From contig JAUWQO010000003.1 of assembly GCA_030610995.1 (NCBI GenBank), forward strand, positions 732 through 64,731: a stretch of 64,000 nucleotides of DNA, in the 5' to 3' direction. The position numbers were made by a program, and so were the translations under genes. Origin of the DNA: Desulfobacterales bacterium (GTDB lineage: Bacteria; Desulfobacterota; Desulfobacteria; Desulfobacterales; ETH-SRB1). This document shows, one piece after another, positions 10,653 to 27,960 of the stretch; positions within the stretch are counted from its first letter, which is position 1; every line of letters begins with the position of its first letter. The notes beneath the pieces are model-generated. The model worked only from the letters and a program-made list of their open reading frames with translations. It was not told where the DNA came from and made no database searches.

Positions 10653-12266
10653 TCAAACCATCTTTTTCAGCCTTTCGAGGTTTTCCCTCGCCAGGATCAT
10701 ATCCGGATCCAATGTTAGGGCCTTTTCGTACATTACTATTGCCTTGTCAAAGTCGCCCTTTTCGCGATAATTCGCTCCAAGGCTTGCATAATCCACGGCA
10801 AAACAGGGATCTATTTTAACAGCCGTGTTAAGGTTTTCGATTGCCTTATCATACTTTTTAAGCTGGAAATAAGAAAATCCAAGAGCGTTGTATATTTCCT
10901 TTATATGGCCGGCTGCTTTCTCTGCTTTTTCCAATACAACGACAGCCTTCTCGTATTCCCCAAGACTGTTATGGCATGAGCCTGCATAAATCAATATCCT
11001 GACAAGATCCTCCTGCTGCGGCTTTAGATCCAGGGCGCGTGAAAACTCACTTAGCGCCGCCTGATAATCTCCCATTTCAAAATAACAACGCCCTTTATAG
11101 AAGTGGAAATAATACTGGCTCTGATATGTGAGTTCAGCCTTGTTAAATGCTTTAACAGCCTGATCAAAGCGTCCAATATTTGTGTAGCCAAGGCCGAGTC
11201 GGAAATTAATATGACCGGCTTCTTGAACCGAAGACAACTTTAATGATTGCTCATATTTTCCCACAGCCTGAATATCGTCTCCCGCGTCATGGTATAATGT
11301 CCCAAAATGACAAAGTAGCGCTCCGATCCCTTGTTTCCTGCCTTGCGATATGGGCAAATCTGCAAAAAATTCAGGAATTCGTCCCCTGCACTCAAGGCAG
11401 TCTTTTTTTGAACTGCCGTGCTCATAATAGAGTCTCATGAGCGCATCTACGCTGTTGCTTTTATAAATATCTGTTAAACTCTCGTTTTTGCGAAATGCGT
11501 CCATACAGGTATAAACCTTACCGTCTTGCGCCGAGATAATGAGCGAAGCCTGACATGGACCTGGTATAAACCGGCCTTCAGACGTTAACATGGCCAATGA
11601 ATTATCAAGAAGATCTCCGTTAAACATATTGCAGGCGATTTCAGCCGGATCTCTTGAGTCATCATCTCCATAATAAACCTTTTCCGTCCTGGCGAGAAGA
11701 TCTTTATCCTGTGCCAGAAAAAAAACGCTTTTGTCGAGGTAAAGACAGGGTAACATAAAAGCGCCTTTAAGCATATCCAGCAAGGTTATAAGTGAAGCAG
11801 GTTCAACCCTGTTGTCGGGAACAATAACCGGAAGCAGCATAAACCTTGGCACTTCCTGATATATATAGCCCTCTTGATCAAATTCTATGGTTTCCCGTTT
11901 CAAATACTGGTAATAATACTGAAAATAATAATCTATTCCTTTGACGGTTGTCTGGGGGACTGTATGAACAAAATGGAGATAAAGCCGGGCAAACAGGTTC
12001 TTTCTGAGAAATTTGATGACATCCTTCTGAATACGTTCTACCTGGGGCATGCTTTCAGGCAGATTCCCGGCCACAAGATAAAGATTAGATGTCATGTTCA
12101 CATATGAAAACAGGCCCGACAACGTCCTGGAAAGCTGCTCAAGATCTCCCTTGTCCTCTTTGCCTAATATCACGTATATTTTATGTATAGCAGTCTTAAT
12201 CATTTCACGACACGATCCGTTTTCCCCCGTCAAGAGAATGAGCTCGCCACATATTTTGAATCTCAT
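10653..12266 (-). CDS. TPR-repeat protein with unrecognised N-terminal domain
   Basis: The C-terminal about 200 aa contain several 34-aa TPR-like units (..YNALGFSYFQLKKYDKAIENLNTAVKIDP..). An internal ATG at 12203 would abut the upstream gene stop (12205) and is the likelier start. Confidence 0.7.
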   Translation of the reverse strand: MRFKICGELILLTGENGSCREMIKTAIHKIYVILGKEDKGDLEQLSRTLSGLFSYVNMTSNLYLVAGNLPESMPQVERIQKDVIKFLRKNLFARLYLHFVHTVPQTTVKGIDYYFQYYYQYLKRETIEFDQEGYIYQEVPRFMLLPVIVPDNRVEPASLITLLDMLKGAFMLPCLYLDKSVFFLAQDKDLLARTEKVYYGDDDSRDPAEIACNMFNGDLLDNSLAMLTSEGRFIPGPCQASLIISAQDGKVYTCMDAFRKNESLTDIYKSNSVDALMRLYYEHGSSKKDCLECRGRIPEFFADLPISQGRKQGIGALLCHFGTLYHDAGDDIQAVGKYEQSLKLSSVQEAGHINFRLGLGYTNIGRFDQAVKAFNKAELTYQSQYYFHFYKGRCYFEMGDYQAALSEFSRALDLKPQQEDLVRILIYAGSCHNSLGEYEKAVVVLEKAEKAAGHIKEIYNALGFSYFQLKKYDKAIENLNTAVKIDPCFAVDYASLGANYREKGDFDKAIVMYEKALTLDPDMILARENLERLKKMV

Positions 12267-13533: not shown

Positions 13534-13881
13534 GGTAAAATCTAACGGTCTGCAATTCCGATATAAGGATTAAATCAGTCACAACTTAAACCTAAGTTGA
13601 GCGATTTTTTGCGAAGATATGTGTTGAGACCTTGATGCATAAGGATTTGCAAAAATCGCAGGCATACCCGTGGATATGTTGAGGATTTTTGTGAAGCCTT
13701 TATGCGCAAGAGATCGGCGCAGATCGAGTAAAAAATAGCTCAATTTAGGTTAAAAGATCATGGACACCTAATGTGGTGGTCTTTTTATGTCTTACACGCC
13801 CCCAGAACTATTTCATGCTATATATCTGTCGAGATTAAAATTATATTGACAAAAACAAGACTAAAAAGTACATGTGAAAAC

Positions 13882-15042
13882 ATGAAAATAGATCTTGGTT
13901 TTATCGGAAAAAATGTCCGTAAACTTAGACGGCAACGTAGTTGGACGATGGCTAAACTGGCTGCAAAAGTCGGAATGAGCGAAGCGCCATTAGGAAGAAT
14001 TGAGCGCGGTGTAAACGCCCCTTCCGCTTCTGTAATTTACAGGCTGTCAAAAGAATTGGGCGTATCGGTTGATACCCTTTTTGCCGAGGATAATCAAAAC
14101 TTCAGATATCCTCAGTATGAAAAAGCGCGCGACCCTTTTCCGGCAACAGCCGGCGGAGAAGATGAAGAACTGCCTTCCAGGATCAAAACAATGTCGCACG
14201 ATATAATAGAAGCGTTCTGTGCTCTTGAAGATATTTGCAATGCGCAAAAAAGGGCGAACATCCCACTTCTTGTTCCTTTCGATCCCACACCTGATGGCAT
14301 GGAAGCGCTTTCAGAAAAGGTGCGCTATTTTGCCGGAATTGAGCACGGCATAGTCTTTGACTATTTTGAGCTGTTTGAAACCCTTGGCTTTCGTGTAGTG
14401 GTCGTTCCAATGTCTAAAGACGTGCATAGTTTTTCGTATTATGACCCACCTAATCAGAACGCATTCTTTTTTCTTAACGCCAGGAAAAATCCTGAACGTC
14501 AGCTTTTTTGCCTGGTCTATGAATTGGGAAAGATCTTAATCCTGACTCACACGATACAGCAGGGCGTGGAATTGTTTCAAACCGATGCTGCATCTGATCC
14601 TTCAGGCGAAAAACCGTTTACAGCACATCGTGCTGCCAGGCGTTTTGCCGCTACCTTTCTGATGCCTGCAAAGGCTGTGAGCGATACAGTTAAACAATTA
14701 GGAATTCAAAAAAAGTACTGGTCTTACGAACTCTTGCTTAGAATCAAACATCGCTTTGGTGTTTCAGTAGAAGCTTTTTTATATCGTTTGAATGAACTTG
14801 ACTTAATCGATCCCTCTCTGGTTCAACCGCTTAAAGCTAAAATTCATAAATATTACGGCAAAACAGATTTTGGAGAACCCGACCTTTCCAGAAGGCTTTT
14901 AACCCCCAACGGCCGTCTGTTGGATCTGGTATTAACGGGAAAAGAATCGGAAGAAGGACATAAGGAAGTGCTTGAAATTGAGAAAGTATTGAAAAAATGG
15001 AAGGTTCACCCCTTCAGCCGTCAGGCGAAAGGGAATTTATAG
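13882..15042 (+). CDS. XRE-family HTH fused to a degenerate ImmA/IrrE (M78) peptidase-like domain
   Basis: Start taken at MKIDLGF (ATG 13882) rather than the track start 13771. HTH segment: SWTMAKLAAKVGMSEAPLGRIERG. M78-like core: RQLFCLVYELGKILILTH...AARRFAATFLMPAKAV, with the HExxH position reading YELGK. The stop overlaps a GTG at 15042 that can start cas1. Confidence 0.75.
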   Translation: MKIDLGFIGKNVRKLRRQRSWTMAKLAAKVGMSEAPLGRIERGVNAPSASVIYRLSKELGVSVDTLFAEDNQNFRYPQYEKARDPFPATAGGEDEELPSRIKTMSHDIIEAFCALEDICNAQKRANIPLLVPFDPTPDGMEALSEKVRYFAGIEHGIVFDYFELFETLGFRVVVVPMSKDVHSFSYYDPPNQNAFFFLNARKNPERQLFCLVYELGKILILTHTIQQGVELFQTDAASDPSGEKPFTAHRAARRFAATFLMPAKAVSDTVKQLGIQKKYWSYELLLRIKHRFGVSVEAFLYRLNELDLIDPSLVQPLKAKIHKYYGKTDFGEPDLSRRLLTPNGRLLDLVLTGKESEEGHKEVLEIEKVLKKWKVHPFSRQAKGNL

Positions 15043-15854
15043 TGCAACTGGTAATAAACAGCGCCGGCACATATATTACACAAAAGGATGGTCTTTTCAG
15101 GCTTAAAAATAAAGACAAACGTTTTGATGTTTCACCCCTGAAAATAGAATCAATCGTTATTTCCAACCAGGCCATGATTACTACCCAGGCAATAGCAACA
15201 GCCATGGAGAATAATATAGATATTGTTTTTCTGGATGGATATGGCGATCCGATTGGTCGAATATGGTTTGCCAAAATGGGAAGCACGGCGCTTATCCGCA
15301 GAAAACAACTGGAAATCGCAGAAGATAAAAAAGGGCTTGAACTGGTCACAGATATGATTAAACAGAAAATTAAAAACCAGGTTGGTTTTCTAAAAAAACT
15401 TGTTTATGCCAGGCCGGGCAGAGAAAATCTGTTTGAAAGCCCGATTAAAATTATAGACAGCGCTCTTTCAGGCCTATCCATGCATGACGGGACAATTGAA
15501 GATGCCAGAAACAGCATTATGGGGTTTGAGGGCACGGCAGGCAGAGCCTATTTCCAGTGCCTGTCCAAACTCATGCCTGAAAAATATATTTTCAAAGGAA
15601 GATCGCGGCAGCCTGCCAAAGATCCATTTAATGCTGTTTTAAATTATTGCTATGGAATACTTTACTCAAGGATTGAAAAAGCCTGCATACTTGCAGGGCT
15701 TGATCCCTATGTCGGCTTTCTTCACACCGATAACTACAATAAAAAATCGATGGTATTTGACCTTATCGAGCCATTTAGAATTTATGCCGAACAAACAACA
15801 GTATATCTTTTTACAGGCATAAAAAATAAAAGACGAGTATTTTCATATAGCTGA
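14997..15854 (+). CDS. cas1: CRISPR-associated endonuclease Cas1, N-terminal 285 codons (frame broken near 15823-15851)
   Basis: Cas1-like sequence (LVINSAGTYITQKDGLFRLK...NAVLNYCYGILYSRIEKA...GLDPYVGFLHTD). Alternative GTG start at 15042. The ORF ends prematurely and the rest of Cas1 continues in another frame. Confidence 0.85.
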   Translation: MEGSPLQPSGEREFIVQLVINSAGTYITQKDGLFRLKNKDKRFDVSPLKIESIVISNQAMITTQAIATAMENNIDIVFLDGYGDPIGRIWFAKMGSTALIRRKQLEIAEDKKGLELVTDMIKQKIKNQVGFLKKLVYARPGRENLFESPIKIIDSALSGLSMHDGTIEDARNSIMGFEGTAGRAYFQCLSKLMPEKYIFKGRSRQPAKDPFNAVLNYCYGILYSRIEKACILAGLDPYVGFLHTDNYNKKSMVFDLIEPFRIYAEQTTVYLFTGIKNKRRVFSYS

Positions 15855-16056
15855 TAATGCGGTTTCTTTAAATGACAAAGGAAAACCGGTTGTTGTTGAT
15901 GCGATAAACACTCATATGGAAGAAACTGTAAGATACAAAAAGAAGAATGTAAAAAGAAAGTATATCCCTCAGCACGAAGCCCACAAGCTTGCGAATATAC
16001 TGCTTTCAGGTGAAGACGAAAAAAGGCCGGAATGGCTGGAGATTAAGGAATTCTGA
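15823..16056 (+). pseudogene. cas1: Cas1 C-terminal segment in the +1 frame relative to the cas1 body
   Basis: The frame opening after TAA at 15820-15822 reads KIKDEYFHIADNAVSLNDKGKPVVVDAINTHMEETVRYKKKNVKRKYIPQHEAHKLANILLSGEDEKRPEWLEIKEF, with stop at 16054-16056. Deleting one A from the A6 run at 15821-15826 fuses the two frames. Confidence 0.7.
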
Positions 16057-16062
16057 CATCAA

Positions 16063-16246
16063 GGGGAGACAGGGAAGGGGTGAACCGGGGAACCGGAGAA
16101 CCGGAGAACCGGGGAAGCGGAGAACCGGGGAACCGGGGAACCGGAGAACCGGAGAACCGGGGAAGCGGAGAAGCGGGGAAGCGGGGAAGCGGAGAAACGG
16201 AGAAACGGAGAAACGGGGAGACGGGGAAAGGGAGAGGAGGAGAATG
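16063..16246. repeat. Tandem array of about 23 octamers GGRGAANC
   Basis: Read directly: GGGGAACC GGAGAACC GGAGAACC GGGGAAGC ... GGAGAAAC x3 ... GGAGAGGA GGAGAATG. The last two units supply the SD and the ATG of the next gene. A period of 8 nt is incompatible with coding. Confidence 0.9.
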
Positions 16247-16624
16247 GGGGAAAAGATAAAAAGCTACAAGGATTTGCGGGTTTTTCAGAATGCCATGGAT
16301 GCGGCGATGAAAATTTTTCATCTGACAAAGCAGTTTCCACCTGAAGAAAAATATTCCATGGTTGATCAAATGAGGCGATCATCTCGCTCAGTTTGTGCAA
16401 ATCTGGCCGAAGCGTGGCGAAAACGACGCTATAGGGCGGCGTTTATTGCAAAACTCAGTGATGCTGAAAGTGAAGCCTGCGAGACTCAAGTGTGGATCGA
16501 ATTTGCGCGAAGATGCAGGTACTTAAAAAATAATATCTGTAATGAACTCGACGCGGTTTATGATCAAATTATGGGGCAAATCGTGAAAATGATTGTTGAT
16601 GCAGACAAATGGCTCATAAAGTAA
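16244..16624 (+). CDS. Four-helix-bundle protein (23S rRNA intervening-sequence protein / Avd-like family)
   Basis: 126 aa from MGEKIKSYKDLRVFQNAMDAAMKIFHLTKQFPPEEKYSMVDQMRRSSRSVCANLAEAWRKR..., the characteristic N-terminal signature of this family. The track ORF 15989 adds an artefactual repeat-encoded extension. Confidence 0.8.
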   Translation: MGEKIKSYKDLRVFQNAMDAAMKIFHLTKQFPPEEKYSMVDQMRRSSRSVCANLAEAWRKRRYRAAFIAKLSDAESEACETQVWIEFARRCRYLKNNICNELDAVYDQIMGQIVKMIVDADKWLIK

Positions 16625-16651
16625 TTACCTTTTCTGAGGAAAGGTAATTAC

Positions 16652-16830
16652 GAAACGGCGAGTGGGTGAATCGGAGAACCGGAGAAGGGAGAATGGGAGA
16701 ATCGGAGAATCGGAGAATGGGAGAATCGGGGAAATAAATCACCGTTTCACCGGCACACCGTTTCACCGATTCTCAGTGTCACCGCTTCCCCGTTTCACCC
16801 TTTCTCCGTCTCTTCGTTTCGCAAACACCG
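16652..16830. repeat. Octamer array that switches strand polarity (GAATCGGA-type units, then CACCGTTT-type units)
   Basis: About 10 purine-rich octamers (16652-16735) are followed by about 12 pyrimidine-rich octamers (16738-16830). The pyrimidine-rich units approximate the reverse complement of the purine-rich units and of the upstream array. It is preceded by a perfect 12-bp hairpin, GTAATTACCTTT/AAAGGTAATTAC (16621-16651). Confidence 0.8.
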
Positions 16831-16840
16831 GAGGTGAAAT

Positions 16841-17137
16841 GTGTCTGTCCTTGTCTGGATAATATACGATATTGTTGAAAACAAACCGAGAACAAAGGTC
16901 GCCAAAGAATGTAAAAAGTTCGGTCTTATCAGGGTTCAAAAAAGCGTGTTCTTAGGAAGGCTTGAATCAAGCCGTTTTGATGAACTATCGGAAAAATGTC
17001 GTGACCTGATTGATGAAAAAATAGACAGTGTTTACCTGTTTCCTTTCTGTCAGGAGGATTTCAGGAATATAAAGGTTCTTGGTCAGGGCTTTGATAAAAA
17101 GCTTGTAAATGATGAGATTTTGGCGAAGTTTTTCTGA
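16841..17137 (+). CDS. cas2: CRISPR-associated endoribonuclease Cas2
   Basis: 98 aa with a GTG start preceded by GGAGGTG. Cas2 ferredoxin-fold signature: VLVWIIYDIVENKPRTKVAKECKKFGLIRVQKSVFLG. Confidence 0.85.
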   Translation: MSVLVWIIYDIVENKPRTKVAKECKKFGLIRVQKSVFLGRLESSRFDELSEKCRDLIDEKIDSVYLFPFCQEDFRNIKVLGQGFDKKLVNDEILAKFF

Positions 17138-17304
17138 TCCGCAGATTACGCAGATTACGCTGAAACAAATGGAGCAATTATCAGTTCTATTTTTAATATT
17201 ACTTGATATCGCAGAGATAGATATAAACATTAATACTTGTATTATTTTACAAGATGGACTATTTTATAAAGTAAGAATATATTAATTTGAAGGATAAATA
17301 TAAA

Positions 17305-17568
17305 ATGTATGCAAAAGTATCAAAGAAGGGTCAAATAACGATCCCTAAACCAATTAGGAAAAAATTAAAAATCGAAAAAGATGGCGCGGTTTTGTTTCTT
17401 GTTGAAGACAACGAGATCAAGCTAAAAGGCGTTCCCGGAGTGCAATCGAAACAATTGGCAGGGAGTCTGAAAAAATATGCAAAGGAATATGTTCCTTTAA
17501 AAAAAATAAGAAAAAAAATACAAGGTGAAATTGCTAATGAAACAGCCGCAGAAGGTTTATCTGATTGA
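17305..17568 (+). CDS. AbrB/SpoVT-type antitoxin (VapB-like)
   Basis: MYAKVSKKGQITIPKPIRKKLKI... swapped-hairpin signature. Overlaps the downstream PIN gene. Confidence 0.7.
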   Translation: MYAKVSKKGQITIPKPIRKKLKIEKDGAVLFLVEDNEIKLKGVPGVQSKQLAGSLKKYAKEYVPLKKIRKKIQGEIANETAAEGLSD

Positions 17569-17947
17569 TACAAACATTATTCTCAGGTATTTATTAGGGG
17601 ATCATCCCAAATTCAGCCCCAAAGCAGAGTCATTTATGGCAGACATATCTGAAGGGACAAAAAAGGCCGAGATACTGGATGTGGTTATTGTTGAATGCAT
17701 CTATGTTATGGAAAAATATTATCAGATTCCCAAGAGTGAAATTTCAACAAAGTTAAGCGGAATACTGAATTTTTCCGGCATTGTAAATCCCGATAGATCA
17801 GAAATCCTCGAAGCACTTCTAAAATACGGCAACACCAATATTGATATCGTAGATTGTATTCTTGCGGCCAAGTCATCTCCTGAAAAGGTCGTTGTTTCAT
17901 TTGACAAAGACATGAAAAAATTAAAAGCGGTCAGTGAGATTTTGTAA
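17537..17947 (+). CDS. PIN-domain toxin (VapC-like)
   Basis: Acidic PIN residues in order: YLIDTN, VVIVECIYV, NIDIVDC, SFDKD. The start is ambiguous (GTG 17525 or ATG 17537). Confidence 0.75.
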   Translation: MKQPQKVYLIDTNIILRYLLGDHPKFSPKAESFMADISEGTKKAEILDVVIVECIYVMEKYYQIPKSEISTKLSGILNFSGIVNPDRSEILEALLKYGNTNIDIVDCILAAKSSPEKVVVSFDKDMKKLKAVSEIL

Positions 17948-18125
17948 TAACACAGCGGCTCCAGCGGCCAGCGATATAACCACGGATTTTACGGTCATCT
18001 TTTTGCTCTTTTAAACAACGAAAAGAAAAAGCCCTATCTCCATTTTTTCGATCAGGTCGGCAATTATAAAATAGGCAGGAAAAAAAGCGGATTTTAAAGG
18101 ATGTTACTGAAATCAAGGATAAATT

Positions 18126-18788
18126 ATGAAAAAGGCAACTCTTAGTTTTAGTAATGTCAATTTGAGAGCATCTCATATACATAAATTTCGTGGTTTTATC
18201 GGAAATTTTTTTAAAAAGCATGATCTTATTCACAATCATGATTTGAAAACAGGAAAACCGATATACCGATATCCGTTAATACAGTTCAAGCTGATAGATA
18301 AAAAGCCCGCAATCATTGCTATAACGGACAGGGCTGTAAATATTTTTTCTGAAATTTTCATGAAGCTCGATAAGATTGCCATTGAAGATACTGTTATTCC
18401 TGTTTTTGAGAAGAATCTGAAGATAGAAGAAGTCGAATTCGGATATTCGGATGAAATATTCATGTACGAGTTTGTTTCTCCCTGGATCGGTCTGAATCAG
18501 AAAAACTTCAAAAAATACAGTGATGTAGGAAACGATGAAAAGAACGAAATGTTAAAAAGGGTAATGACAGGAAACATATTATCCATGGCAAAGTATCTTG
18601 ACTGCTGGCTTTCAAAAGATCAGAAAATTAAAATTGATCATAAGTTGAAAGAAATAAAAGTGAACCTTAAAGGTAAAAGCATGACAGCTTTTAACGGGAT
18701 ATTTAAAACCAATTTTTTACTACCTGATTATCTGGGGATCGGGAAATCAGTTTCACGGGGGTTTGGGGCGCTCAAGCAAGTTTTGTAA
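18126..18788 (+). CDS. cas6: CRISPR repeat endoribonuclease Cas6
   Basis: 220 aa with the C-terminal glycine-rich loop GIGKSVSRGFGALKQV typical of Cas6. First gene of the effector operon. Confidence 0.8.
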   Translation: MKKATLSFSNVNLRASHIHKFRGFIGNFFKKHDLIHNHDLKTGKPIYRYPLIQFKLIDKKPAIIAITDRAVNIFSEIFMKLDKIAIEDTVIPVFEKNLKIEEVEFGYSDEIFMYEFVSPWIGLNQKNFKKYSDVGNDEKNEMLKRVMTGNILSMAKYLDCWLSKDQKIKIDHKLKEIKVNLKGKSMTAFNGIFKTNFLLPDYLGIGKSVSRGFGALKQVL

Positions 18789-18824
18789 CAGAACTTTTTA
18801 CTAAAAAGTAAAAACGGAGAGAAT

Positions 18825-20558
18825 ATGAGTTTCGCATATAAATTATGGAAAATTGGACGCATATTGACTGAAAACGAAATCAGGGACTCAGTGTGTGATA
18901 AAGCTGAAATGGCTGAAGGTGAAGAGCCTCAATTTGCAAACATTGATTTTCAAGTTTTAAACAATGAAGTTAAAGATATTTTATGCAGCAAAAATTCTAT
19001 CAGCAAGGGAAAAATGTTTTTTACAAAAAAAATTGGTGGGGCAGGTGACGGTATTTATTACCTATATCCAAATCTAAATATCCAAAAAGAAAACCTTCAA
19101 AAGAAGATTATACAACTTGTTAACACATTAAAAAGTAGCATGCTGGTATATGCCAACGAACAAAACCGAAAAATTGCCGAACTGATTTTTTTAAAATTTG
19201 AGGAAATTAAAAAGTATATTGAGCGGGCTAAAGTTGAGTTGGAACTAATACATCTAAAAAAACAATATGAAGAACTAAATGAAAGCTCAATACATAAAGA
19301 AGATGAGACAACCGCCCAAAAAACAGATAAAAAAATAAAGAAATTTGAGAAAAAAATAGCTGAAAATAACAAAAAATGTACTAAACTTATAGAATCGCGC
19401 AAAATTTGGGATCGTCTATTATTGAAGTTATGCCGAAACCTTGTCGTTTCCCCGAAAGACAATTATTGGCTTTGGCTCTCAATAAACGGAAAAACTTTTT
19501 ATGAACTAATGCCTGAAGTATGGAGTAACTGGTATGAAAATCCAGTTTCTACTCGTAATAATTTAAAAATAGGATACGATGCTTTCACCAACAAGGAGAC
19601 TGAAGTAGGCTATAAACCTGAAGTAAAAGTTTTTTCATATGATCAATACCATAAAAGTATGGAATATCGTCTCAATGAAAACCTGCCATTATCTCTTGAA
19701 AGTGCCAGAAATATTAAATTTGCATGGATGTACATACTTAATAATCTAGTTTTTTACTACAAAGGTTTAGAGTATGTATTAATACCAAATCTTATTTCCG
19801 ATGATGCGGATTTATATAAAACAGTTTTAAACCGTTTCAGACGGGCTAATAAAAATTCAGGCGCAAAGAGATCAATCCTTGAAAAGCTTAATGCTCAGGA
19901 AAAGAAGCTGGAAAAAGATATTGATAAATTAAAGAAGAAAAAATTGAAACCAGCAAATAATGAAAATTTGAACGAATTAGTTCAGCAAAGAGAAGAAACA
20001 CTATCTAAAATAAAAGAGTTTGATACAGGTATGATAAGGGAGTTTGATGAACAGATAGATGAGGTTGGAGACATAAAAAACTCGATCACTATAGATTATA
20101 TTTTCACTTTAATAAATAGAACCAACCTATCCTTTGAGATTAAAGGATCAATTGAAGATGTAATACCAAGTCAGGTTCGGAATGTAGTTACTGAAATGGC
20201 AAACCATAATATAAGTGATCTGGTTAAGCTTGGTAAAAGAGATAGAAATGAAACACTGCTTCAGGATTGTTTTAACAGAGAGGAACTTTCATTCGTTTTA
20301 AACAGATCTCAAAAAAACAATGGAAACAAAATTCTTCAGGAGCGTTTATATCTGGCAAAGTTACTGTTAACAGATACAAAAATAGAAATCGATCAATTGC
20401 TGCAACGCTTTGAAACAAACAGGCTGCTTGGTTATGACAAAAAGAAACGCCTTACCAAAGACGGTATATCCGAATGGATTGAATTTTCAAAAAACTTCAC
20501 TACAAATGAAAATAATATTTATAACTTTTTTAAACGGTTGGGCAAAATAAAGGGGTGA
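18825..20558 (+). CDS. cas8b: Type I large subunit, Cas8b-like
   Basis: The call rests on position (between cas6 and cas7) and size (577 aa). No motif was recognised by eye. It contains two long K/E-rich coiled-coil-like insertions. Confidence 0.55.
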   Translation: MSFAYKLWKIGRILTENEIRDSVCDKAEMAEGEEPQFANIDFQVLNNEVKDILCSKNSISKGKMFFTKKIGGAGDGIYYLYPNLNIQKENLQKKIIQLVNTLKSSMLVYANEQNRKIAELIFLKFEEIKKYIERAKVELELIHLKKQYEELNESSIHKEDETTAQKTDKKIKKFEKKIAENNKKCTKLIESRKIWDRLLLKLCRNLVVSPKDNYWLWLSINGKTFYELMPEVWSNWYENPVSTRNNLKIGYDAFTNKETEVGYKPEVKVFSYDQYHKSMEYRLNENLPLSLESARNIKFAWMYILNNLVFYYKGLEYVLIPNLISDDADLYKTVLNRFRRANKNSGAKRSILEKLNAQEKKLEKDIDKLKKKKLKPANNENLNELVQQREETLSKIKEFDTGMIREFDEQIDEVGDIKNSITIDYIFTLINRTNLSFEIKGSIEDVIPSQVRNVVTEMANHNISDLVKLGKRDRNETLLQDCFNREELSFVLNRSQKNNGNKILQERLYLAKLLLTDTKIEIDQLLQRFETNRLLGYDKKKRLTKDGISEWIEFSKNFTTNENNIYNFFKRLGKIKG

Positions 20559-20563
20559 TAATT

Positions 20564-20986
20564 ATGGAGCAGGAAAGTGTTAATTTTGTGTCATATTTAA
20601 AAAAACGACAGGAAGATGACGAAATTAATTTTTTTAGCAATCCAGCTATTAAAAAAGCATATTTTATCGGAGGATATGCAAAAGCCGTTATACTGAGTTC
20701 CTATATGTCAGAAGTAAGTAGAAAAAATAAAACCTTCAAAAACTGGCTGTCGAATCAGATTATTAATTACAGGAATCTTGATCGGATTTTTGAAATGGCT
20801 TTCAGGTTTGAGCAAAAATTAAAACTCAAGCTCAGGAATGATTCTGAAGTAAGAAAACTTGCGCATGAAACACCTGCATCAAAACCACCAGGCATTTCAA
20901 GCGCACGGATAACGTTTGCCTTTGTTGCCGGCTTTGATGATTACAGGAAATTTGTCGTGGAAAATAAAATAGAAAAAATACAATAA
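20564..20986 (+). CDS. Small helical protein, probable Cas11-like small subunit (equivalent to the Cas8b C-terminal domain)
   Basis: 140-143 aa. The ORF overlaps the cas8 stop (GTG 20555 / ATG 20564, with AAAGGGG 8 nt upstream). The helical pattern AYFIGGYAKAVILSSYM...FKNWLSNQ resembles C-terminal domains of TM1802/Cas8b-type proteins. Confidence 0.4.
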   Translation: MEQESVNFVSYLKKRQEDDEINFFSNPAIKKAYFIGGYAKAVILSSYMSEVSRKNKTFKNWLSNQIINYRNLDRIFEMAFRFEQKLKLKLRNDSEVRKLAHETPASKPPGISSARITFAFVAGFDDYRKFVVENKIEKIQ

Positions 20987-21002
20987 AAAAGGAGACGAAA
21001 TA

Positions 21003-21932
21003 ATGGATAATCTTGCAAAGCAGAGTGAAATTCTTTTTATGTGGGATGCCAGAATGTGCAACCCAAATGGCGATATGGGGGCTGATAATTCACCGCGATT
21101 CGATGATGTTGATGAAAAAGCTATTGTAAGTGATGTCAGGGTAAAAAGAACTGTGAGAGATGACCTACAATATCGAAAAGGAGAAACTATATATATTAAT
21201 AATGAAGAGATACTTTCCAAAGGTTTGAAAGCCGAGGAACGTTTTTCACAACTGAAAGATGTCAATTCTGGGAAAAATGATAAAGATGTTTTTCTTACAT
21301 GTATCGACAACAGGCTTTTTGGTGGTGTTGCCCCTAAAAGCGATATCCAGCTTGTTGGTGCTGTACAATTCTGCTGGGCAAAATCGCTTAATAAAACTGA
21401 AACAGTTTTAAAACCCGGGACCGGTGCTTTTGCAACAAAGGGAGCTGACGGTGAAACAAAGTTTAAAAAAACGTTCCGGGCTGACAATTATATTCCATAT
21501 GGACTTTTTGCGATGTATGGAAGCGTAAACAGATTACAAGCAACGAACGACAATACAACTGAGGATGATATTACAAATATGCTTGATTCTTTGTGGCATG
21601 GAACAAAGTTCCTAAATACAAGAAGCAAGCAGGGGCAAAAACCCCGTTTTCTTCTCAGGATAATTTACAAAGAAGAGAGTAAATATTTTATCGGTCTTTT
21701 AGATGAGTTTATATGTTTAAACAATCAGGAGAATAGCGGAAATATCAGGGAAATCGAAGAGGCGGACATTAAATTTGATAAACTCGTTGCGGCTATATCG
21801 AAAGCTAAAAATCAAATAGAAAAAGTCATGATCGTGCTGGACGAGTCATTAGAAAAATATAGAAATATTTTGGAAAAAATTAAAAATGTCGAATTCACAG
21901 ATGAAATTAACATTATGAAAAAAGAGAGATAG
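21003..21932 (+). CDS. cas7: Cas7 backbone subunit (Csh2/Csd2 family)
   Basis: N-terminal signature ILFMWDARMCNPNGDMGADNSPRFD...VSDVRVKRTVRD, typical of the CT1132/Csd2-Csh2 family. Confidence 0.8.
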   Translation: MDNLAKQSEILFMWDARMCNPNGDMGADNSPRFDDVDEKAIVSDVRVKRTVRDDLQYRKGETIYINNEEILSKGLKAEERFSQLKDVNSGKNDKDVFLTCIDNRLFGGVAPKSDIQLVGAVQFCWAKSLNKTETVLKPGTGAFATKGADGETKFKKTFRADNYIPYGLFAMYGSVNRLQATNDNTTEDDITNMLDSLWHGTKFLNTRSKQGQKPRFLLRIIYKEESKYFIGLLDEFICLNNQENSGNIREIEEADIKFDKLVAAISKAKNQIEKVMIVLDESLEKYRNILEKIKNVEFTDEINIMKKER

Positions 21933-21935
21933 GCT

Positions 21936-22814
21936 ATGTTTGGATTTAAATTATGGGGAAGATTTGGTTCATTTAGAGATCCAATAACCATAACTCAGAA
22001 TATGACTTTCAGTATCCCTCCCAAAACAACAGTGGGAGGGATGTTGGCATCAATTCTGGGCATTGATTATAATGACTATTTTGATGATAATGACTATTTT
22101 GATTTCGGTTACTCGCTGGTTCTCAACAATCCGGTACGCAAAAAGAGTTTTTCGCAAAATTATATAATGGATTATACAAAAACCTCAGCAATCAGATTTA
22201 ATTTAATGCTGACAATCCGGGACAACAATCATGAGGCGATGTTGTACGAAAATCAGAAAAAAGAACTGGCATCAAAAGAAACTCGCACGAAAATGGAAGA
22301 AAGAAAATTAAAAGGCCTGGAAGAGAAGATTGAAACAGCGGAAAAAAAAGTGAGCAAAGCAATCAATAATTGGAGTGAAAAAAGTTCGGGAAGATTTGCA
22401 AAAGCAAAGCCCATATATAGAGAATTGCTGATTAATCCGTCTTTCTATATATTCATAAACAAATTCAAGCACGAAGATAAAATTATTGAATTAATGAAAG
22501 AACATTTGAGTGAATTTCCTTTATACATGGGTAATAGTGAATTTGCGGCAAATTATCAGTTTATTGATTGCCAAAAGTATGAAAAAAAGAAAATCATGGG
22601 ACTTGATTCTTTTACAGGGAATCCGGAAAAAATTAAATTTGAGTCGGGAAAAAAATATACAAGTGTATATGCTGCAACACGCACAACTGGAAGCCGTGAG
22701 TACAGGGATTATAAAAGTATGGTTGTTTGCGATAAAAAGATAATATTATTATCTGCAATTGATGGTTACAGTCTGAATACAGACACGGGAGATTTTAATT
22801 GTGAGTTTATTTGA
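21936..22814 (+). CDS. cas5: Cas5 subunit (with internal K/E-rich insertion)
   Basis: N-terminus FGFKLWGRFGSFRDPITITQNMTFSIPPKTTVGGMLASILG matches the Cas5 signature. At 292 aa it is longer than usual. Confidence 0.7.
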   Translation: MFGFKLWGRFGSFRDPITITQNMTFSIPPKTTVGGMLASILGIDYNDYFDDNDYFDFGYSLVLNNPVRKKSFSQNYIMDYTKTSAIRFNLMLTIRDNNHEAMLYENQKKELASKETRTKMEERKLKGLEEKIETAEKKVSKAINNWSEKSSGRFAKAKPIYRELLINPSFYIFINKFKHEDKIIELMKEHLSEFPLYMGNSEFAANYQFIDCQKYEKKKIMGLDSFTGNPEKIKFESGKKYTSVYAATRTTGSREYRDYKSMVVCDKKIILLSAIDGYSLNTDTGDFNCEFI

Positions 22815-25059
22815 AATACCTGATATTTATTTCTCTCATCCGGATGAATACCCATTATCAACACATATAAAAAATATTGCTGCATCGTTTAATGATCCAA
22901 CTCACAAGAGAGCTGCTGCTTTTCATGATTTGGGAAAATTGAATAATAAATTTCAACAAAATATTAATAATGGAGGGCGGTTACCCTTTCACTCTTTTGA
23001 AGGAGCATTTTTTTTTCTTCTTAATAATAATTTGACAATTGATATTGATTCATTTGGAATATTTTTATCAATTTTAAAACATCATGGCAATCTGCCTGAT
23101 GTTAATTCGCTTGCTGAAGATATACTTGCCGATGAAGATTATATTTTAAGGAATCATCCGGACTTAAAGGATACGATTCAACAAATAAAAAAAATCATAC
23201 AGATAAATTTACATTTTGAACTGGAAGATTGCTATGAAATATTTGATACTGAATCATTTGTTAATGATAACAAGTTGAATGGGCTGTATTCTTTTTTCAG
23301 AATCAGGGAAATATTTTCTCAATTAATATTTGCCGATAAATATGAAGCAATTTTCAAGAAAGAATTCAGGACCGGCTGGTCTTTTGAATTTGATAAATTT
23401 AATAAAAAGCTACTGACCCATATTGGTAGCAAAATGAATGCATTATCTCCGGTTAGGAATGCTGCCAGAGTTGATGTTATTGAAAATTTTAAACAAAATA
23501 ACGATAAAAAAATATTCTTTCTTGAAGCGCCAACTGGAATCGGCAAAACATTTACAGCTCTTCACCTTGCTTTACAGATTGCAGGAGAAAAAAATAAAAA
23601 ACGGATTATTAATGCACTTCCTATGACGTCAATTATTGATCAGACATATGAAGAGTATGCAAAGGTAATTGATCCAAATATATTATTAAAATATCACTAT
23701 TTGACAAATACAAAAGAGTATATTTTTCCGGATAAGGAAAAAGAAAACGAAAAGAATTTTTTCAGGCAAAAGAATGACTTTATCAGTTCATCGTGGGGAT
23801 TGGATCAGGTTATAATAACTACATTTAATCAAATCTTAAATGCATTTTATTCAAACAAAAATCGTGATTTGATAAAATTTTGGACATTAAGGGATTCTGT
23901 AATAATTTTTGATGAGATCCAAGCCGTTCCCAGAATACTGCTAAAAGATTTTTCAGAAACAATCAGTTTTTTATCCAGAGAATTTAATATTGATTTTGTT
24001 CTTATGTCAGCCACCATTCCGGCAATAAAGAAGTTTTTTAAGCCCGAAACGACATCCGAGCTGCTTGATTTAAAATATTATTCCATGGACTTCAATAATC
24101 GGTATTCAATAAAATTTATTGAAAAGATTGATACTGCCGGAAAACTGACAGAACAAATCTTGAGAAAATATGAAAAAAACAACTCTTTGGTTTGCGTCGT
24201 TAATACAAAAAAACTTGCTTTGGAGATATACGAAAAGATTGAAGAAATTTATAAAGCAGATGAAATTTTTTTATTAAGCACATTATTCATACCTCAAGAT
24301 CGAAAAAATATTATAAGCGTAATAAGTAACAGACTGAAAAATAAGCAGAAAACTATTCTTATTTCAACTCAGGTAATTGAAGCCGGTGTTGACCTTGATT
24401 TTGATTACGGTTTCAGGGAGTTCGCGCCTTTATATAGTATTATCCAAACTGCTGGCCGAATAAATCGTGAAAACAGGGATGAAGTAAGAAAAAGCGCAGA
24501 ACTCATCATTACAAACAAGATTGGAGCGAGTCCATACAAACCGGCAGATTTGTTATATGACGAAGTAACCGAATTGCTAAAAACCAAAATAAGAGAAAAT
24601 AGAATACTGCCCTTTTTAAAAAAATATTTCGAAATGGCGATCAAACGAGCTCCGCAGGAGTTTGTTTTAGTCGATCATATGAAACAACTTGATTTTGAAA
24701 AAACAGCGCAACAATTTGACAGCAGTTTTATGCAAACGCTGCCTAATATAATACCTGTATTTATAGAAATTGAAGATGGCTTATACGAGAGCATTTGTTC
24801 TAAAAGAAATAAAATAATCGAAGAATTGAAAGCACCTAATATATCTCTTGAATATAAAATGGAACGAAAAAGTATTTTAAAGCATATGAATAAAACTATT
24901 TCAAAATATGTCATCAATATTTGTAATGATGAAGCTAAAGCATTTCTTGACTTTGAAAATTATGGGGACATGAAGGTTTGTAATTATTCATATGTAAAAA
25001 GTGGTCTGTATTCGGATAAGAAAGGATGGACTGGTTTTTCATCAACATTATTGTTTTAA
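22801..25059 (+). CDS. cas3: Cas3 HD nuclease-helicase fusion
   Basis: HD domain (AAFHDLGKLNNKFQ, LKHHG), then SF2 helicase motifs (EAPTGIGKT, IIFDEIQAV, MSATIP, TQVIEAGVD). GTG start overlaps the cas5 end. Confidence 0.9.
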   Translation: MSLFEIPDIYFSHPDEYPLSTHIKNIAASFNDPTHKRAAAFHDLGKLNNKFQQNINNGGRLPFHSFEGAFFFLLNNNLTIDIDSFGIFLSILKHHGNLPDVNSLAEDILADEDYILRNHPDLKDTIQQIKKIIQINLHFELEDCYEIFDTESFVNDNKLNGLYSFFRIREIFSQLIFADKYEAIFKKEFRTGWSFEFDKFNKKLLTHIGSKMNALSPVRNAARVDVIENFKQNNDKKIFFLEAPTGIGKTFTALHLALQIAGEKNKKRIINALPMTSIIDQTYEEYAKVIDPNILLKYHYLTNTKEYIFPDKEKENEKNFFRQKNDFISSSWGLDQVIITTFNQILNAFYSNKNRDLIKFWTLRDSVIIFDEIQAVPRILLKDFSETISFLSREFNIDFVLMSATIPAIKKFFKPETTSELLDLKYYSMDFNNRYSIKFIEKIDTAGKLTEQILRKYEKNNSLVCVVNTKKLALEIYEKIEEIYKADEIFLLSTLFIPQDRKNIISVISNRLKNKQKTILISTQVIEAGVDLDFDYGFREFAPLYSIIQTAGRINRENRDEVRKSAELIITNKIGASPYKPADLLYDEVTELLKTKIRENRILPFLKKYFEMAIKRAPQEFVLVDHMKQLDFEKTAQQFDSSFMQTLPNIIPVFIEIEDGLYESICSKRNKIIEELKAPNISLEYKMERKSILKHMNKTISKYVINICNDEAKAFLDFENYGDMKVCNYSYVKSGLYSDKKGWTGFSSTLLF

Positions 25060-25492: not shown

Positions 25493-25816
25493 ATGTCTTC
25501 TAAAAAAGATAAAAAGCTAATTTATGCTCTTATAAAAAAGTATGTAAATGTGCTGAAAGAGCATAGCATACCTGTTTGGCGTTTATATCTATATGGCTCT
25601 TATGCCAAAGACACCTATCATCAATATAGCGATATTGATTTAGCCGTTTTTTGGAACAAGGATGAGATAGATGGTTTTGACGAGGATGTATTTTTGATGA
25701 AGCTCACCAGGATAGTGGATTTACGAATAGAGCCGCACTCCTTTGCGAAATCGGACTTTGATGAGACCAATCCGTATATCAAAGCAATAATAGAGACCGG
25801 CGAGAGGATAATTTGA
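25493..25816 (+). CDS. Minimal nucleotidyltransferase (MNT-type) domain protein
   Basis: GS-X9-DxD signature: LYLYGSYAKDTYHQYSDIDLAVF. The stop overlaps the TTG start of cas4. Confidence 0.75.
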   Translation: MSSKKDKKLIYALIKKYVNVLKEHSIPVWRLYLYGSYAKDTYHQYSDIDLAVFWNKDEIDGFDEDVFLMKLTRIVDLRIEPHSFAKSDFDETNPYIKAIIETGERII

Positions 25817-26412
25817 TTGATCAAACCGCTTTTTCCATAACAGCAAGTCATCTTTTGGAATATCTATTCTGCCCACGGTTTACGTATTTTGAATATGTTT
25901 TGGATATTCCGCAGCATGAAGAAAAAAGGTTTAAGGTTCAAAAAGGAAGAGAAATTCATGAAGACAAACAGAGAATAAATCCGGATTACCTGAGGAAGAA
26001 ACTCGGATGCATTGAACGAAAATCTTCGGTCTATCTTTCATCTGCACGGGGTATCAGGGGAATTGTTGATGAAATACTTTTTCTGGATGACGAGAGCGCA
26101 GCGCCGCTTGATTACAAATATGCAGAATACAAGGAACGAACTTTCAAGAATCATAAATATCAGTTGACCTTCTATGGACAGTTGATAAAAGAAAATTATG
26201 ATGTGCCGGTAAAAAGAGGTTTTATCATCTACACTCGAAGCAGGAATAAACTGGTAGAAGTGCCTATTACAGAGAAGATGTATCTGGAATTGGACATTAT
26301 AATCGGCGATCTTACCAATGTTGTTCAGAAGGGGATTTATCCAAAGCCAACAAAATATAAGCAGCGCTGCTCTGATTGCTGCTACAGAAATTTATGTGAA
26401 AGGACTATTTGA
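25813..26412 (+). CDS. cas4: Cas4 RecB-like exonuclease
   Basis: N-terminal Cys (YLFCPRFTYFEY), a nuclease core (DEILF...PLDYKYAEY..YQLTFYGQLI) and the C-terminal cluster CSDCCYRNLC. Confidence 0.85.
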   Translation: MIDQTAFSITASHLLEYLFCPRFTYFEYVLDIPQHEEKRFKVQKGREIHEDKQRINPDYLRKKLGCIERKSSVYLSSARGIRGIVDEILFLDDESAAPLDYKYAEYKERTFKNHKYQLTFYGQLIKENYDVPVKRGFIIYTRSRNKLVEVPITEKMYLELDIIIGDLTNVVQKGIYPKPTKYKQRCSDCCYRNLCERTI

Positions 26413-27270: not shown

Positions 27271-27960
27271 ATTGAAGAGAAGAATCCATTAAAACAAGGA
27301 TTGAAACAAGCGTTAAGAGATTCGAATGAAGGAAAGGAAAGGGATTGAAGAGAAGAATCCATTAAAACAAGGATTGAAACTCTTTTCCGCCCCGATATGT
27401 CAAACAGGCAAATCCAAATTGAAGAGAAGAATCCATTAAAACAAGGATTGAAACACGATGGCATCGATGACAGACAGTCCGAGACGTTGATTGAAGAGAA
27501 GAATCCATTAAAACAAGGATTGAAACAGAATATGGGAACTACAAGAGGTAATTCTATTCTTATTGAAGAGAAGAATCCATTAAAACAAGGATTGAAACCC
27601 ATCAATTCGCATCCTGCATCAAACCCGTAAATAATTGAAGAGAAGAATCCATTAAAACAAGGATTGAAACTCTGCGCCAATAAGACAATCGGTATTCTTA
27701 ATTCTTATTGAAGAGAAGAATCCATTAAAACAAGGATTGAAACAGGACATACCACGTCAGGTATGCAGAAATAGCTGGCATTGAAGAGAAGAATCCATTA
27801 AAATAAGGATTGAAACCTGCACCTACCTTTGCCCTTGCCTTAGAAAATCTCATTGAAGAGAAGAATCCATTAAAACAAGGATTGAAACTCCATGAGTGGA
27901 CGTGAGCAAACAGGTTCAGCCGCATTAAAGAGAAGATTCCATTAAAACAAGGATTGAAAC
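27271..27960 (+). CRISPR. CRISPR array, 10 repeats of 37 nt and 9 spacers of 35-37 nt
   Basis: Repeat ATTGAAGAGAAGAATCCATTAAAACAAGGATTGAAAC starts at 27271, 27344, 27418, 27490, 27562, 27634, 27707, 27780 (C25T variant), 27852 and 27924 (G4A, A14T). The internal AATCC/GGATT stem is followed by the 8-nt handle ATTGAAAC. Confidence 0.97.

Follow-up and report, generated by a model that had tools for sequence, protein, structure and literature searches.

A catalytically dead XRE-M78 protein at the head of CRISPR-Cas operons in Desulfobacterales, predicted to act as an operon-encoded regulator

To our knowledge, the switching-on of CRISPR-Cas (short palindromic repeats that are clustered and regularly interspaced, and CRISPR-associated genes) expression has been worked out for few model organisms, where it mostly involves global regulators. 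Here, we analysed a gene that leads the cas operon of a Desulfobacterales bacterium (GenBank assembly GCA_030610995.1, contig JAUWQO010000003.1, positions 732 to 64,731). We refer to this stretch of 64,000 nucleotides (nt) as the window, and coordinates without a locus number count from its first letter. The gene encodes a helix-turn-helix (HTH) domain of the XRE type followed by a domain of the M78 (ImmA/IrrE) peptidase family. The closest known relatives of its product are fusions of CapH and CapP, the antitoxins VapB52 and RmrA, and the C-protein-like Xre regulators.

In CapH/CapP, single-stranded DNA (ssDNA) activates CapP, leading to the cleavage of CapH and the derepression of the adjacent immune operon. 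CapH and CapP regulate the anti-phage signalling system based on cyclic oligonucleotides (CBASS), the defence island system associated with restriction-modification (DISARM) and other immune operons, and they also occur as fusions. VapB52 (Rv2515c, PDB 9vzy) has an HExxH motif with bound zinc, cleaves itself with ssDNA and neutralises a PIN toxin. The C-protein-like Xre regulators of type I-F3 CRISPR transposons repress the tniQ-cas operon, activating from a distal site and repressing from a proximal one.

The protein described here joins an XRE HTH to an M78 domain that has lost its zinc ligands, stands at the 5′ end of cas operons and is preceded by a conserved promoter/operator module. From the sequences, we would put at roughly 60% the probability that it forms an autoregulated, non-proteolytic repressor cassette controlling the whole cas operon.

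Domain architecture and loss of the zinc ligands

The coding sequence spans 13882 to 15042 on the forward strand (386 residues). An upstream ATG at 13771 opens a long reading frame that is not the gene; the start was placed at 13882 because homologues begin there and because the conserved promoter lies 36 nt upstream of it. The start given in the initial annotation, 13882, is thereby retained. Its end, 15044, had to be moved to 15042, as position 15044 is the last base of the cas1 start codon.

Profile searches recovered both of the domains initially read from the letters. Pfam HTH_3 matched residues 12-65 (13915-14076, forward strand; E 2.8e-12), and Pfam Peptidase_M78 (PF06114) matched residues 166-304 (14377-14793, forward strand), a non-catalytic domain as detailed below, with an E-value of 2e-13 and 50.6 bits against a cut-off of 22, covering profile positions 2-123 of 123. 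The NCBIfam RamB model matched the HTH only, and a PrpR/RamB-type acyl-CoA regulator was discarded as a candidate. In an AlphaFold2 model of the protein (mean pLDDT, the per-residue confidence score, of 78), the HTH is followed by two linker helices, the alpha/beta M78 core and about 80 residues of helices. Helices 311-326 and 346-372 lie on either side of a C-terminal motif specific to the family, EPDxSRRxLTPNGRxWDL (residues 332-349, 14875-14928, forward strand), with 10 invariant residues in an alignment of 49 sequences. Foldseek matched the M78 core to IrrE/PprI and CapP. The HTH was matched to C.AhdI, C.BclI, SinR and the N-terminal domain of CapH, the matches to C.AhdI, SinR and CapH reaching template modelling (TM) scores of 0.8-0.9 on the target, and C.AhdI and C.BclI were structurally closest. 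The PADLOC capP and capH profiles also match the regulator. Fold and PADLOC matches alike support the kinship with ImmR/ImmA-type immunity modules proposed at the outset, and the best sequence match among solved structures is VapB52 (chain 9vzy_A).

The motif YELGK (residues 213-217, 14518-14532, forward strand) takes the place of HExxH. It aligns opposite HEFVH of 9vzy_A and HELGH of distant relatives, so that both zinc-binding histidines are replaced, just as the initial annotation had it. At the position of the third zinc ligand, a Glu in the E-x-x-A-N-x-F-A segment, the window protein has His249. Among 103 full-length representatives of the family, the first His position is occupied by Tyr in 53 and by His in nine, the second mostly by Arg, Asn or Lys, and the third by Arg, Asp, His or Glu. 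A full HExxH is kept by only seven of the 103, all of them peripheral members, whereas the former catalytic Glu is retained in 94. None of the 13 readable copies from surveyed loci, whether linked to cas, CBASS or other genes, has HExxH, and three of them (the cas-linked L061, L063 and L064) have lost the Glu as well. Family survey and locus copies thus show that the metal site was lost long ago and that its absence is a conserved trait of a large clade, no defect of this copy. The remaining M78 core is highly conserved across the family. The protein belongs to M78 by sequence but fails on the catalytic features, and its annotation as a metallopeptidase is unwarranted.

The same positions bear on the possibility that the protein is an active, LexA-like self-cleaving CapH-CapP fusion using unconventional metal ligands. 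Such a proposal could draw on the frequent retention of the catalytic Glu, on the His at the third-ligand position of the window protein and on the existence of active fusions, such as VapB52 and CapH-CapP fusions. However, all three ligand positions vary across the family (Y/F/C/A/L; R/N/K/S; R/D/H/E), leaving no conserved metal site, and even the Glu is missing from the three cas-linked copies named above. On these ligand positions we rejected an active or self-cleaving peptidase, to which we assign hardly any probability.

Placement at the 5′ end of immune operons

A search of a collection clustered at 90% identity returned 469 homologues at E<1e-5, mostly of 378 residues and from Desulfobacterales metagenomes; with clustering at 50% identity, the family numbers 86 clusters at E<1e-30. 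Besides Desulfobacterales, the hosts include metagenome-assembled genomes labelled Calditrichaceae, Kiritimatiellae and Eubacteriales. Scanning one genome per species yielded 66 loci with a regulator (37-95% identity), or 67 with the window. Their open reading frames (ORFs) were called and clustered, and the clusters were named with NCBIfam and PADLOC.

Thirty-seven of these loci (36 from genomes and the window) offer at least 6 kb of downstream sequence, and 30 of them carry cas genes there. The regulator is on the same strand as the cas genes in 30 of 30 cases and always at their 5′ end; random orientation would produce this with a chance of about 1e-9. In nine loci, the regulator and the following gene either overlap or are separated by 4-25 nt that include a ribosome-binding site. 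The genes upstream are unrelated housekeeping genes, so that the cas module begins, at its 5′ edge, with the regulator. Precomputed Pfam annotation of metagenome contigs gave an independent confirmation, in the order regulator, ORF6N, cas3, cas5d, csd1, cas7, cas4, cas1, cas2. The initial placement of the gene in a cas operon is therefore well borne out by the junction with cas1, the same-strand linkage and the short gaps.

The operons behind the regulator belong to four subtypes, confirmed with NCBIfam and PADLOC: I-C (cas3-cas5c-cas8c-cas7-cas4-cas1-cas2), I-E (cas3-cse1-cse2-cas7e-cas5e-cas6e-cas1), I-F (cas1f-cas2/3f-csy1-4) and, as in the window, I-B (cas1-cas2-cas6b-cas8b-cas7-cas5-cas3). 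The linkage to cas genes is thus conserved and non-random across taxa and across these subtypes. Identity to the window protein is 82-87% for regulators heading I-C operons, 74-75% for I-B, 67-74% for I-E and 46-48% for I-F. Judged by these values, the regulator does not track the cas subtype. In L047, an ORF at 11421-11663 consists of the first 52 residues of a Cas1 of the I-B type and the last 48 residues of a Cas6b; it directly follows the regulator and precedes a complete type I-F operon. This remnant suggests the footprint of a cas module that was replaced behind one and the same regulator.

Not all family members head cas operons. Two homologues with 47-48% identity and without HExxH lie divergently beside CBASS operons, in L042 (7693-9829) and L044 (6526-9685, minus strand); one operon comprises a cyclase, an E2 protein and a 2TM effector, the other a patatin phospholipase and a cyclase. 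The regulator of L025 precedes a large methyltransferase, and L028 carries a WYL regulator too.

The initial annotation had tied the protein to cas1 and to the adaptation step of CRISPR immunity. The survey upheld the linkage to cas operons in general and failed to support a linkage to cas1 in particular: over all 67 loci, the first downstream cas gene is cas3 in 27, cas1 in eight, cas6 in four and cas5c in one. A role specific to adaptation was dropped as a candidate, as most homologues precede cas3 and not cas1. Together with the four subtypes and the two CBASS neighbours, the varied first cas gene favours reading the protein as one that regulates the immune operon in its entirety. Most likely, then, it would serve as a portable on/off switch for CRISPR immunity that is not specific to spacer acquisition.

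In at least a dozen loci (L005, L007, L010, L011, L014, L022, L024, L029, L030, L046, L047 and L068-L072), the regulator has ORF6N genes (KilA-N/antirepressor-like) as immediate neighbours, in some cases two copies of them. Fic, DUF1016, DUF5131 and AAA-ATPase genes were also found between the regulator and cas3.

The frequent company of ORF6N, Fic, DUF1016 and other small, mobile-looking genes, and the copies without cas neighbours, could mean that the protein is part of an XRE cassette that hitch-hikes without any functional connection to cas: a small selfish module, perhaps accompanied by ORF6N partners, with a preference for insertion at the edges of defence loci. Insertion of this kind would not account for an orientation and a 5′-end placement that are uniform across 30 of 30 loci. 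True operon membership is also marked by the overlaps, or by the gaps of 4-25 nt that include ribosome-binding sites. We regard this explanation as improbable, a shade more so than the one considered next.

That other explanation makes the protein the antitoxin of a toxin-antitoxin or RosmerTA-like module of the VapB52/RmrA type that happens to be located in defence islands. Its partner would be a toxin encoded nearby, for instance the PIN protein, or else a Cas nuclease that the C-terminal helices would restrain. The PADLOC RmrA profiles match nearly the full length (residues 6-323, E 1e-25 to 1e-13), ending before the C-terminal motif, and VapB52 is the best solved relative. Moreover, the literature describes Xre-COG2856 fusions as often linked to PIN toxins, and a PIN gene is present in the window operon and directly after the regulator in L018. 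Yet PIN genes occur in only two of the 67 loci, where they come with a MazE/AbrB antitoxin of their own, most loci lack any toxin candidate, and the next gene is cas3, cas1 or cas6 in at least 18 loci, with no candidate toxin between. In addition, the peptidase that triggers VapB52 is dead in this family, and the regulator does not co-vary with the cas subtype, so that we consider an antitoxin role improbable.

At the junction with cas1, the TAG stop of the regulator (15040-15042) shares a single base with a GTG at 15042-15044, as had been noted initially. This GTG aligns with the ATG starts of the full-length cas1 genes in L018, L029 and L047, and the frame that it opens gives a Cas1 match (Pfam, E 1.1e-71). 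The C-terminus of homologues reads ...KWKVVKK; in the window protein, VKK gives way to an 11-residue tail, HPFSRQAKGNL, which makes the protein eight residues longer and reaches into the ribosome-binding region of cas1. By this comparison, the one-base overlap is a local junction peculiar to the window locus and no feature of the family.

The cas1 gene itself (15042-16056, forward strand) is split by a +1 frameshift in an A-run near 15822-15830. The first frame stops at 15852-15854, and the final approximately 70 residues continue in another frame up to the TGA at 16054-16056, with 48-73% identity to the intact Cas1 of L018. An error of assembly, a pseudogene or a slippery site could each explain the split. 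The rest of the I-B operon (16841-25059, forward strand) contains cas2, a MazE/PIN pair, cas6b, cas8b, a small ORF, cas7, cas5 and cas3, followed by cas4 (25813-26412) after cas3 and a CRISPR array of 10 repeats of 37 nt (27271-27960; Rfam CRISPR-DR7).

Several further genes are interspersed in this region. Between cas1 and cas2 (16063-16820), a gene for a four-helix bundle of the 23S rRNA intervening-sequence protein family is inserted (16244-16624), bordered by 8-nt tandem repeats (GAACCGGA, GAATCGGA) and by the inverted version of these; L029 carries the same insertion. The MazE/AbrB-PIN toxin-antitoxin pair lies between cas2 and cas6b at 17287-17947, and L018 has the same pair between the regulator and cas1 (1948-2596). 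The cas8b gene barely reaches the threshold of Pfam TM1802. Its stop is overlapped by an ORF of 143 residues (20555-20986), located between cas8b and cas7 and without a Pfam or NCBIfam match, which may encode a small-subunit-like protein. Downstream of cas3, a minimal nucleotidyltransferase gene overlaps the start of cas4 (25493-26412 for the two), and the array begins about 850 nt beyond.

Neither the window nor the 10 kb around the regulator in any locus contains a second M78 gene. A second M78 protein or a second copy of the regulator acting in trans was accordingly set aside, none being present in the window or within 10 kb.

Predicted control region and mode of action

We aligned the 120 nt upstream of all copies. 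Of 62 loci, 54 have the hexamer TTGACA at 34-41 nt, mostly 35-36 nt, ahead of the ATG; in 53 of these 54, there is no Shine-Dalgarno motif (GGAG, GAGG or AGGA). The three loci that have TTGACA far upstream possess strong Shine-Dalgarno sequences. In the window, TTGACA is found at 13846-13851 on the forward strand, 36 nt before the ATG, and is taken as the -35 hexamer. From the start of a canonical -35 hexamer to the transcription start is 35 or 36 nt. Given this distance and the missing Shine-Dalgarno motif, a leaderless mRNA that begins at the ATG is the simplest reading, and the window transcript is probably leaderless, with its start at or next to A13882.

The promoter is overlaid by a palindrome. 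In the window, the proximal operator candidate GACTAAAAAGTAC (13859-13871, forward strand) has the form ACT-N4-AGT. It overlaps both the spacer of the promoter and the beginning of TACATG, the putative -10 hexamer (13869-13874, forward strand). In all clades, the proximal palindrome keeps its position relative to TTGACA, whereas its letters differ from one protein clade to another: many have ACTATATAGT, others AATTATATGGTT, and the clade of the window ACYAAAAAGT. Each locus was searched for the sequence that, after the proximal site itself, matches that site best; in 23 of the 54 loci, this operator-like distal copy lies 50-53 bp upstream of the proximal site, against about three expected. This spacing corresponds to five helical turns and puts the distal copy beyond the -35 hexamer. 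An alignment of six loci shows conservation all the way from a distal block, the candidate distal operator AGAACTATTTCATGCTATATATCTGT (13804-13829, forward strand), to the ATG. Identity among the six closest relatives starts about 80-85 nt before the ATG, and the sequences further upstream are unrelated. The predicted control region of about 85 bp thus has the layout expected of an autoregulated XRE repressor, in which a site between -35 and +1 would be expected to repress.

A perfect 17-bp palindrome, ACTTTTTACTAAAAAGT, occupies 18793-18809 in the 36-nt gap between cas6b and cas8b and contains an exact 11-nt copy of the proximal operator candidate. A search for operator copies before cas genes or within the operon, allowing two mismatches, returned this sole match, which is not significant on its own since 1.8 matches are expected by chance. 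Conceivably, the palindrome may be an internal operator or control site.

Between a divergent radical-SAM gene and the regulator, positions 13589-13752 form a near-perfect hairpin of 165 nt with a folding free energy of -75.8 kcal/mol (z -10.1 against shuffled sequences). In L001, L005, L007 and L008, the right arm of this hairpin, GCTCAATTTAGGTT, is again present just upstream of the regulator; L007 and L008 have other long hairpins there, of differing sequence. An Rfam scan found CRISPR repeats only and gave no match for the upstream hairpin.

In the mechanism that we propose, the regulator would be the first product of the cas operon, bind the operators in its own promoter and thereby set its own expression and that of the co-transcribed cas genes. 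A dimer, or a higher oligomer, on the proximal palindrome would block RNA polymerase and bring about autorepression, and the distal site, in the manner of C-protein-like Xre controllers, would contribute activation or cooperativity. The dead M78 domain and the C-terminal motif might act as a sensor or as an oligomerisation module through which the protein lets go of the DNA without being cleaved. With cleavage excluded, this release would be allosteric, as in WYL-type regulators. The promoter and the regulator together would make up a portable cassette that has been recombined before different immune operons.

Our best guess for the inducing signal, by analogy with CapP, IrrE and VapB52, would be ssDNA or DNA damage. 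R90 of CapP contacts ssDNA in that protein. Seven residues ahead of its first ligand position, the window protein keeps a conserved Arg, which would be the equivalent of CapP R90 as read off the sequence and not from an alignment. A wider proposal holds that the dead XRE-M78 cassette subjects CRISPR-Cas systems of many subtypes, and sometimes a CBASS or a methyltransferase locus, to a single switch that responds to infection or damage. The switch would be operated by release that a ligand induces and not by proteolysis, with the old cleft and EPDxSRRxLTPNGRxWDL as the sensor. We put this forward tentatively, as a possibility with the odds against it.

A number of observations weigh against an autoregulated repressor of this kind. 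Seven of the 37 loci with long downstream sequence have no cas genes, and a few loci have nothing defence-related at all. The distal block of the window is a poor match to the proximal site (5 of 12 positions mismatched by eye), the proximal site of the window clade is a palindrome of just 3+3 bp, and the -10 hexamer is mediocre in several clades. Where other genes intervene between the regulator and cas3, no second operator was found before cas3, nothing being evident upstream of cas3 in L069, for example, so that control of the cas genes at such loci would need read-through. As for the sensor, the conserved C-terminal loop was modelled with low confidence, too uncertainly for a sensing mechanism, a pseudo-substrate or a ligand pocket to be argued from it. 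The model also has no GAF domain after the M78 core. Because this domain forms half of the groove that holds ssDNA in CapP and IrrE, ssDNA as the signal is a guess only.

The features of the control region could also be expected of a timing controller in the manner of the C proteins, which would respond to no ligand. The HTH alone would then regulate, permitting a burst of expression on entry into a naive cell and autorepression afterwards, and the M78 domain would be a scaffold for dimerisation or stability. The two-operator layout, the leaderless first gene and the co-transcription with nucleases resemble restriction-modification controllers and I-F3 Xre regulators. Furthermore, the HTH is closest to those of C.AhdI and C.BclI, the PADLOC Control_protein profile matches (E 6.5e-6), and the cassette is clearly mobile between operons. 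However, controller proteins have only 70-100 residues, whereas the roughly 300 residues outside the HTH are strongly constrained here, many positions being invariant, the old catalytic Glu and the C-terminal motif among them. Such constraint exceeds the usual need of a dimerisation scaffold; it argues against a pure timing controller without proving the case, and we judge that explanation rather unlikely, albeit deserving more weight than an antitoxin or a hitch-hiking cassette.

If the protein is an operon-encoded repressor as proposed, many uncultured sulfate reducers, and some other phyla, carry a dedicated regulator before their type I-B, I-C, I-E and I-F systems, and its compact control region of about 85 bp, as predicted, is directly testable. 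Should the dead domain be a sensor, a proteolytic immunity switch of the ImmA/IrrE/CapP kind would have been converted into a non-proteolytic one, and it would offer a handle for inducing or silencing native CRISPR-Cas systems. Were the domain a scaffold only, the family would still be useful as an annotation marker for the 5′ boundary of cas operons.

Comparison with known systems

Just like CapH-CapP, the family pairs an XRE HTH with a domain of the M78/IrrE family encoded beside the promoter of an immune operon, and the divergent arrangement with CBASS operons in L042 and L044 is shared with CapH/CapP as well. Unlike CapP, the family lacks the zinc ligands, the cysteine switch and the GAF domain. 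CapH/CapP are encoded divergently, whereas the window family lies on the cas strand in 30 of 30 loci with co-transcription predicted, L042 and L044 being the only divergent cases. Moreover, the operons linked to the family are mostly CRISPR-Cas operons, an association unreported in the literature that we consulted. The searched literature held no report linking the M78/COG2856/ImmA/XRE family to CRISPR, although a survey of CRISPR-linked gene neighbourhoods from 2018 might mention it.

The Xre-COG2856 fusions VapB52 and RmrA share with the window protein an N-terminal XRE HTH, an M78 core with a helical subdomain and a short helical C-terminal domain. In contrast to VapB52, the window family lacks a metal site and is not consistently paired with a toxin, the next gene in the window being cas1.

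With the C proteins and the I-F3 Xre regulators, the family has in common an XRE HTH encoded together with the genes under control and two palindromic sites upstream, which are candidates by sequence here. Those regulators are 68-100 residues long without an extra domain, whereas the window protein has 386 residues and two further regions. Their operators are adjacent, whereas the candidate operators of the window family are 52 bp apart. Furthermore, descriptions of the I-F3 Xre regulators are confined to I-F3 systems carried by transposons.

The ancestral logic of an XRE repressor combined with an M78 peptidase that responds to DNA damage connects the family to ImmR/ImmA and DdrO/IrrE, and the fold is similar to IrrE/PprI. 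Those systems consist of two proteins with an active peptidase and control the induction of mobile elements or DNA repair, unlike the family described here. By analogy, the closest functional counterparts of the protein would be CapH-CapP fusions and C-protein-like Xre controllers, yet it fails the defining features of each.

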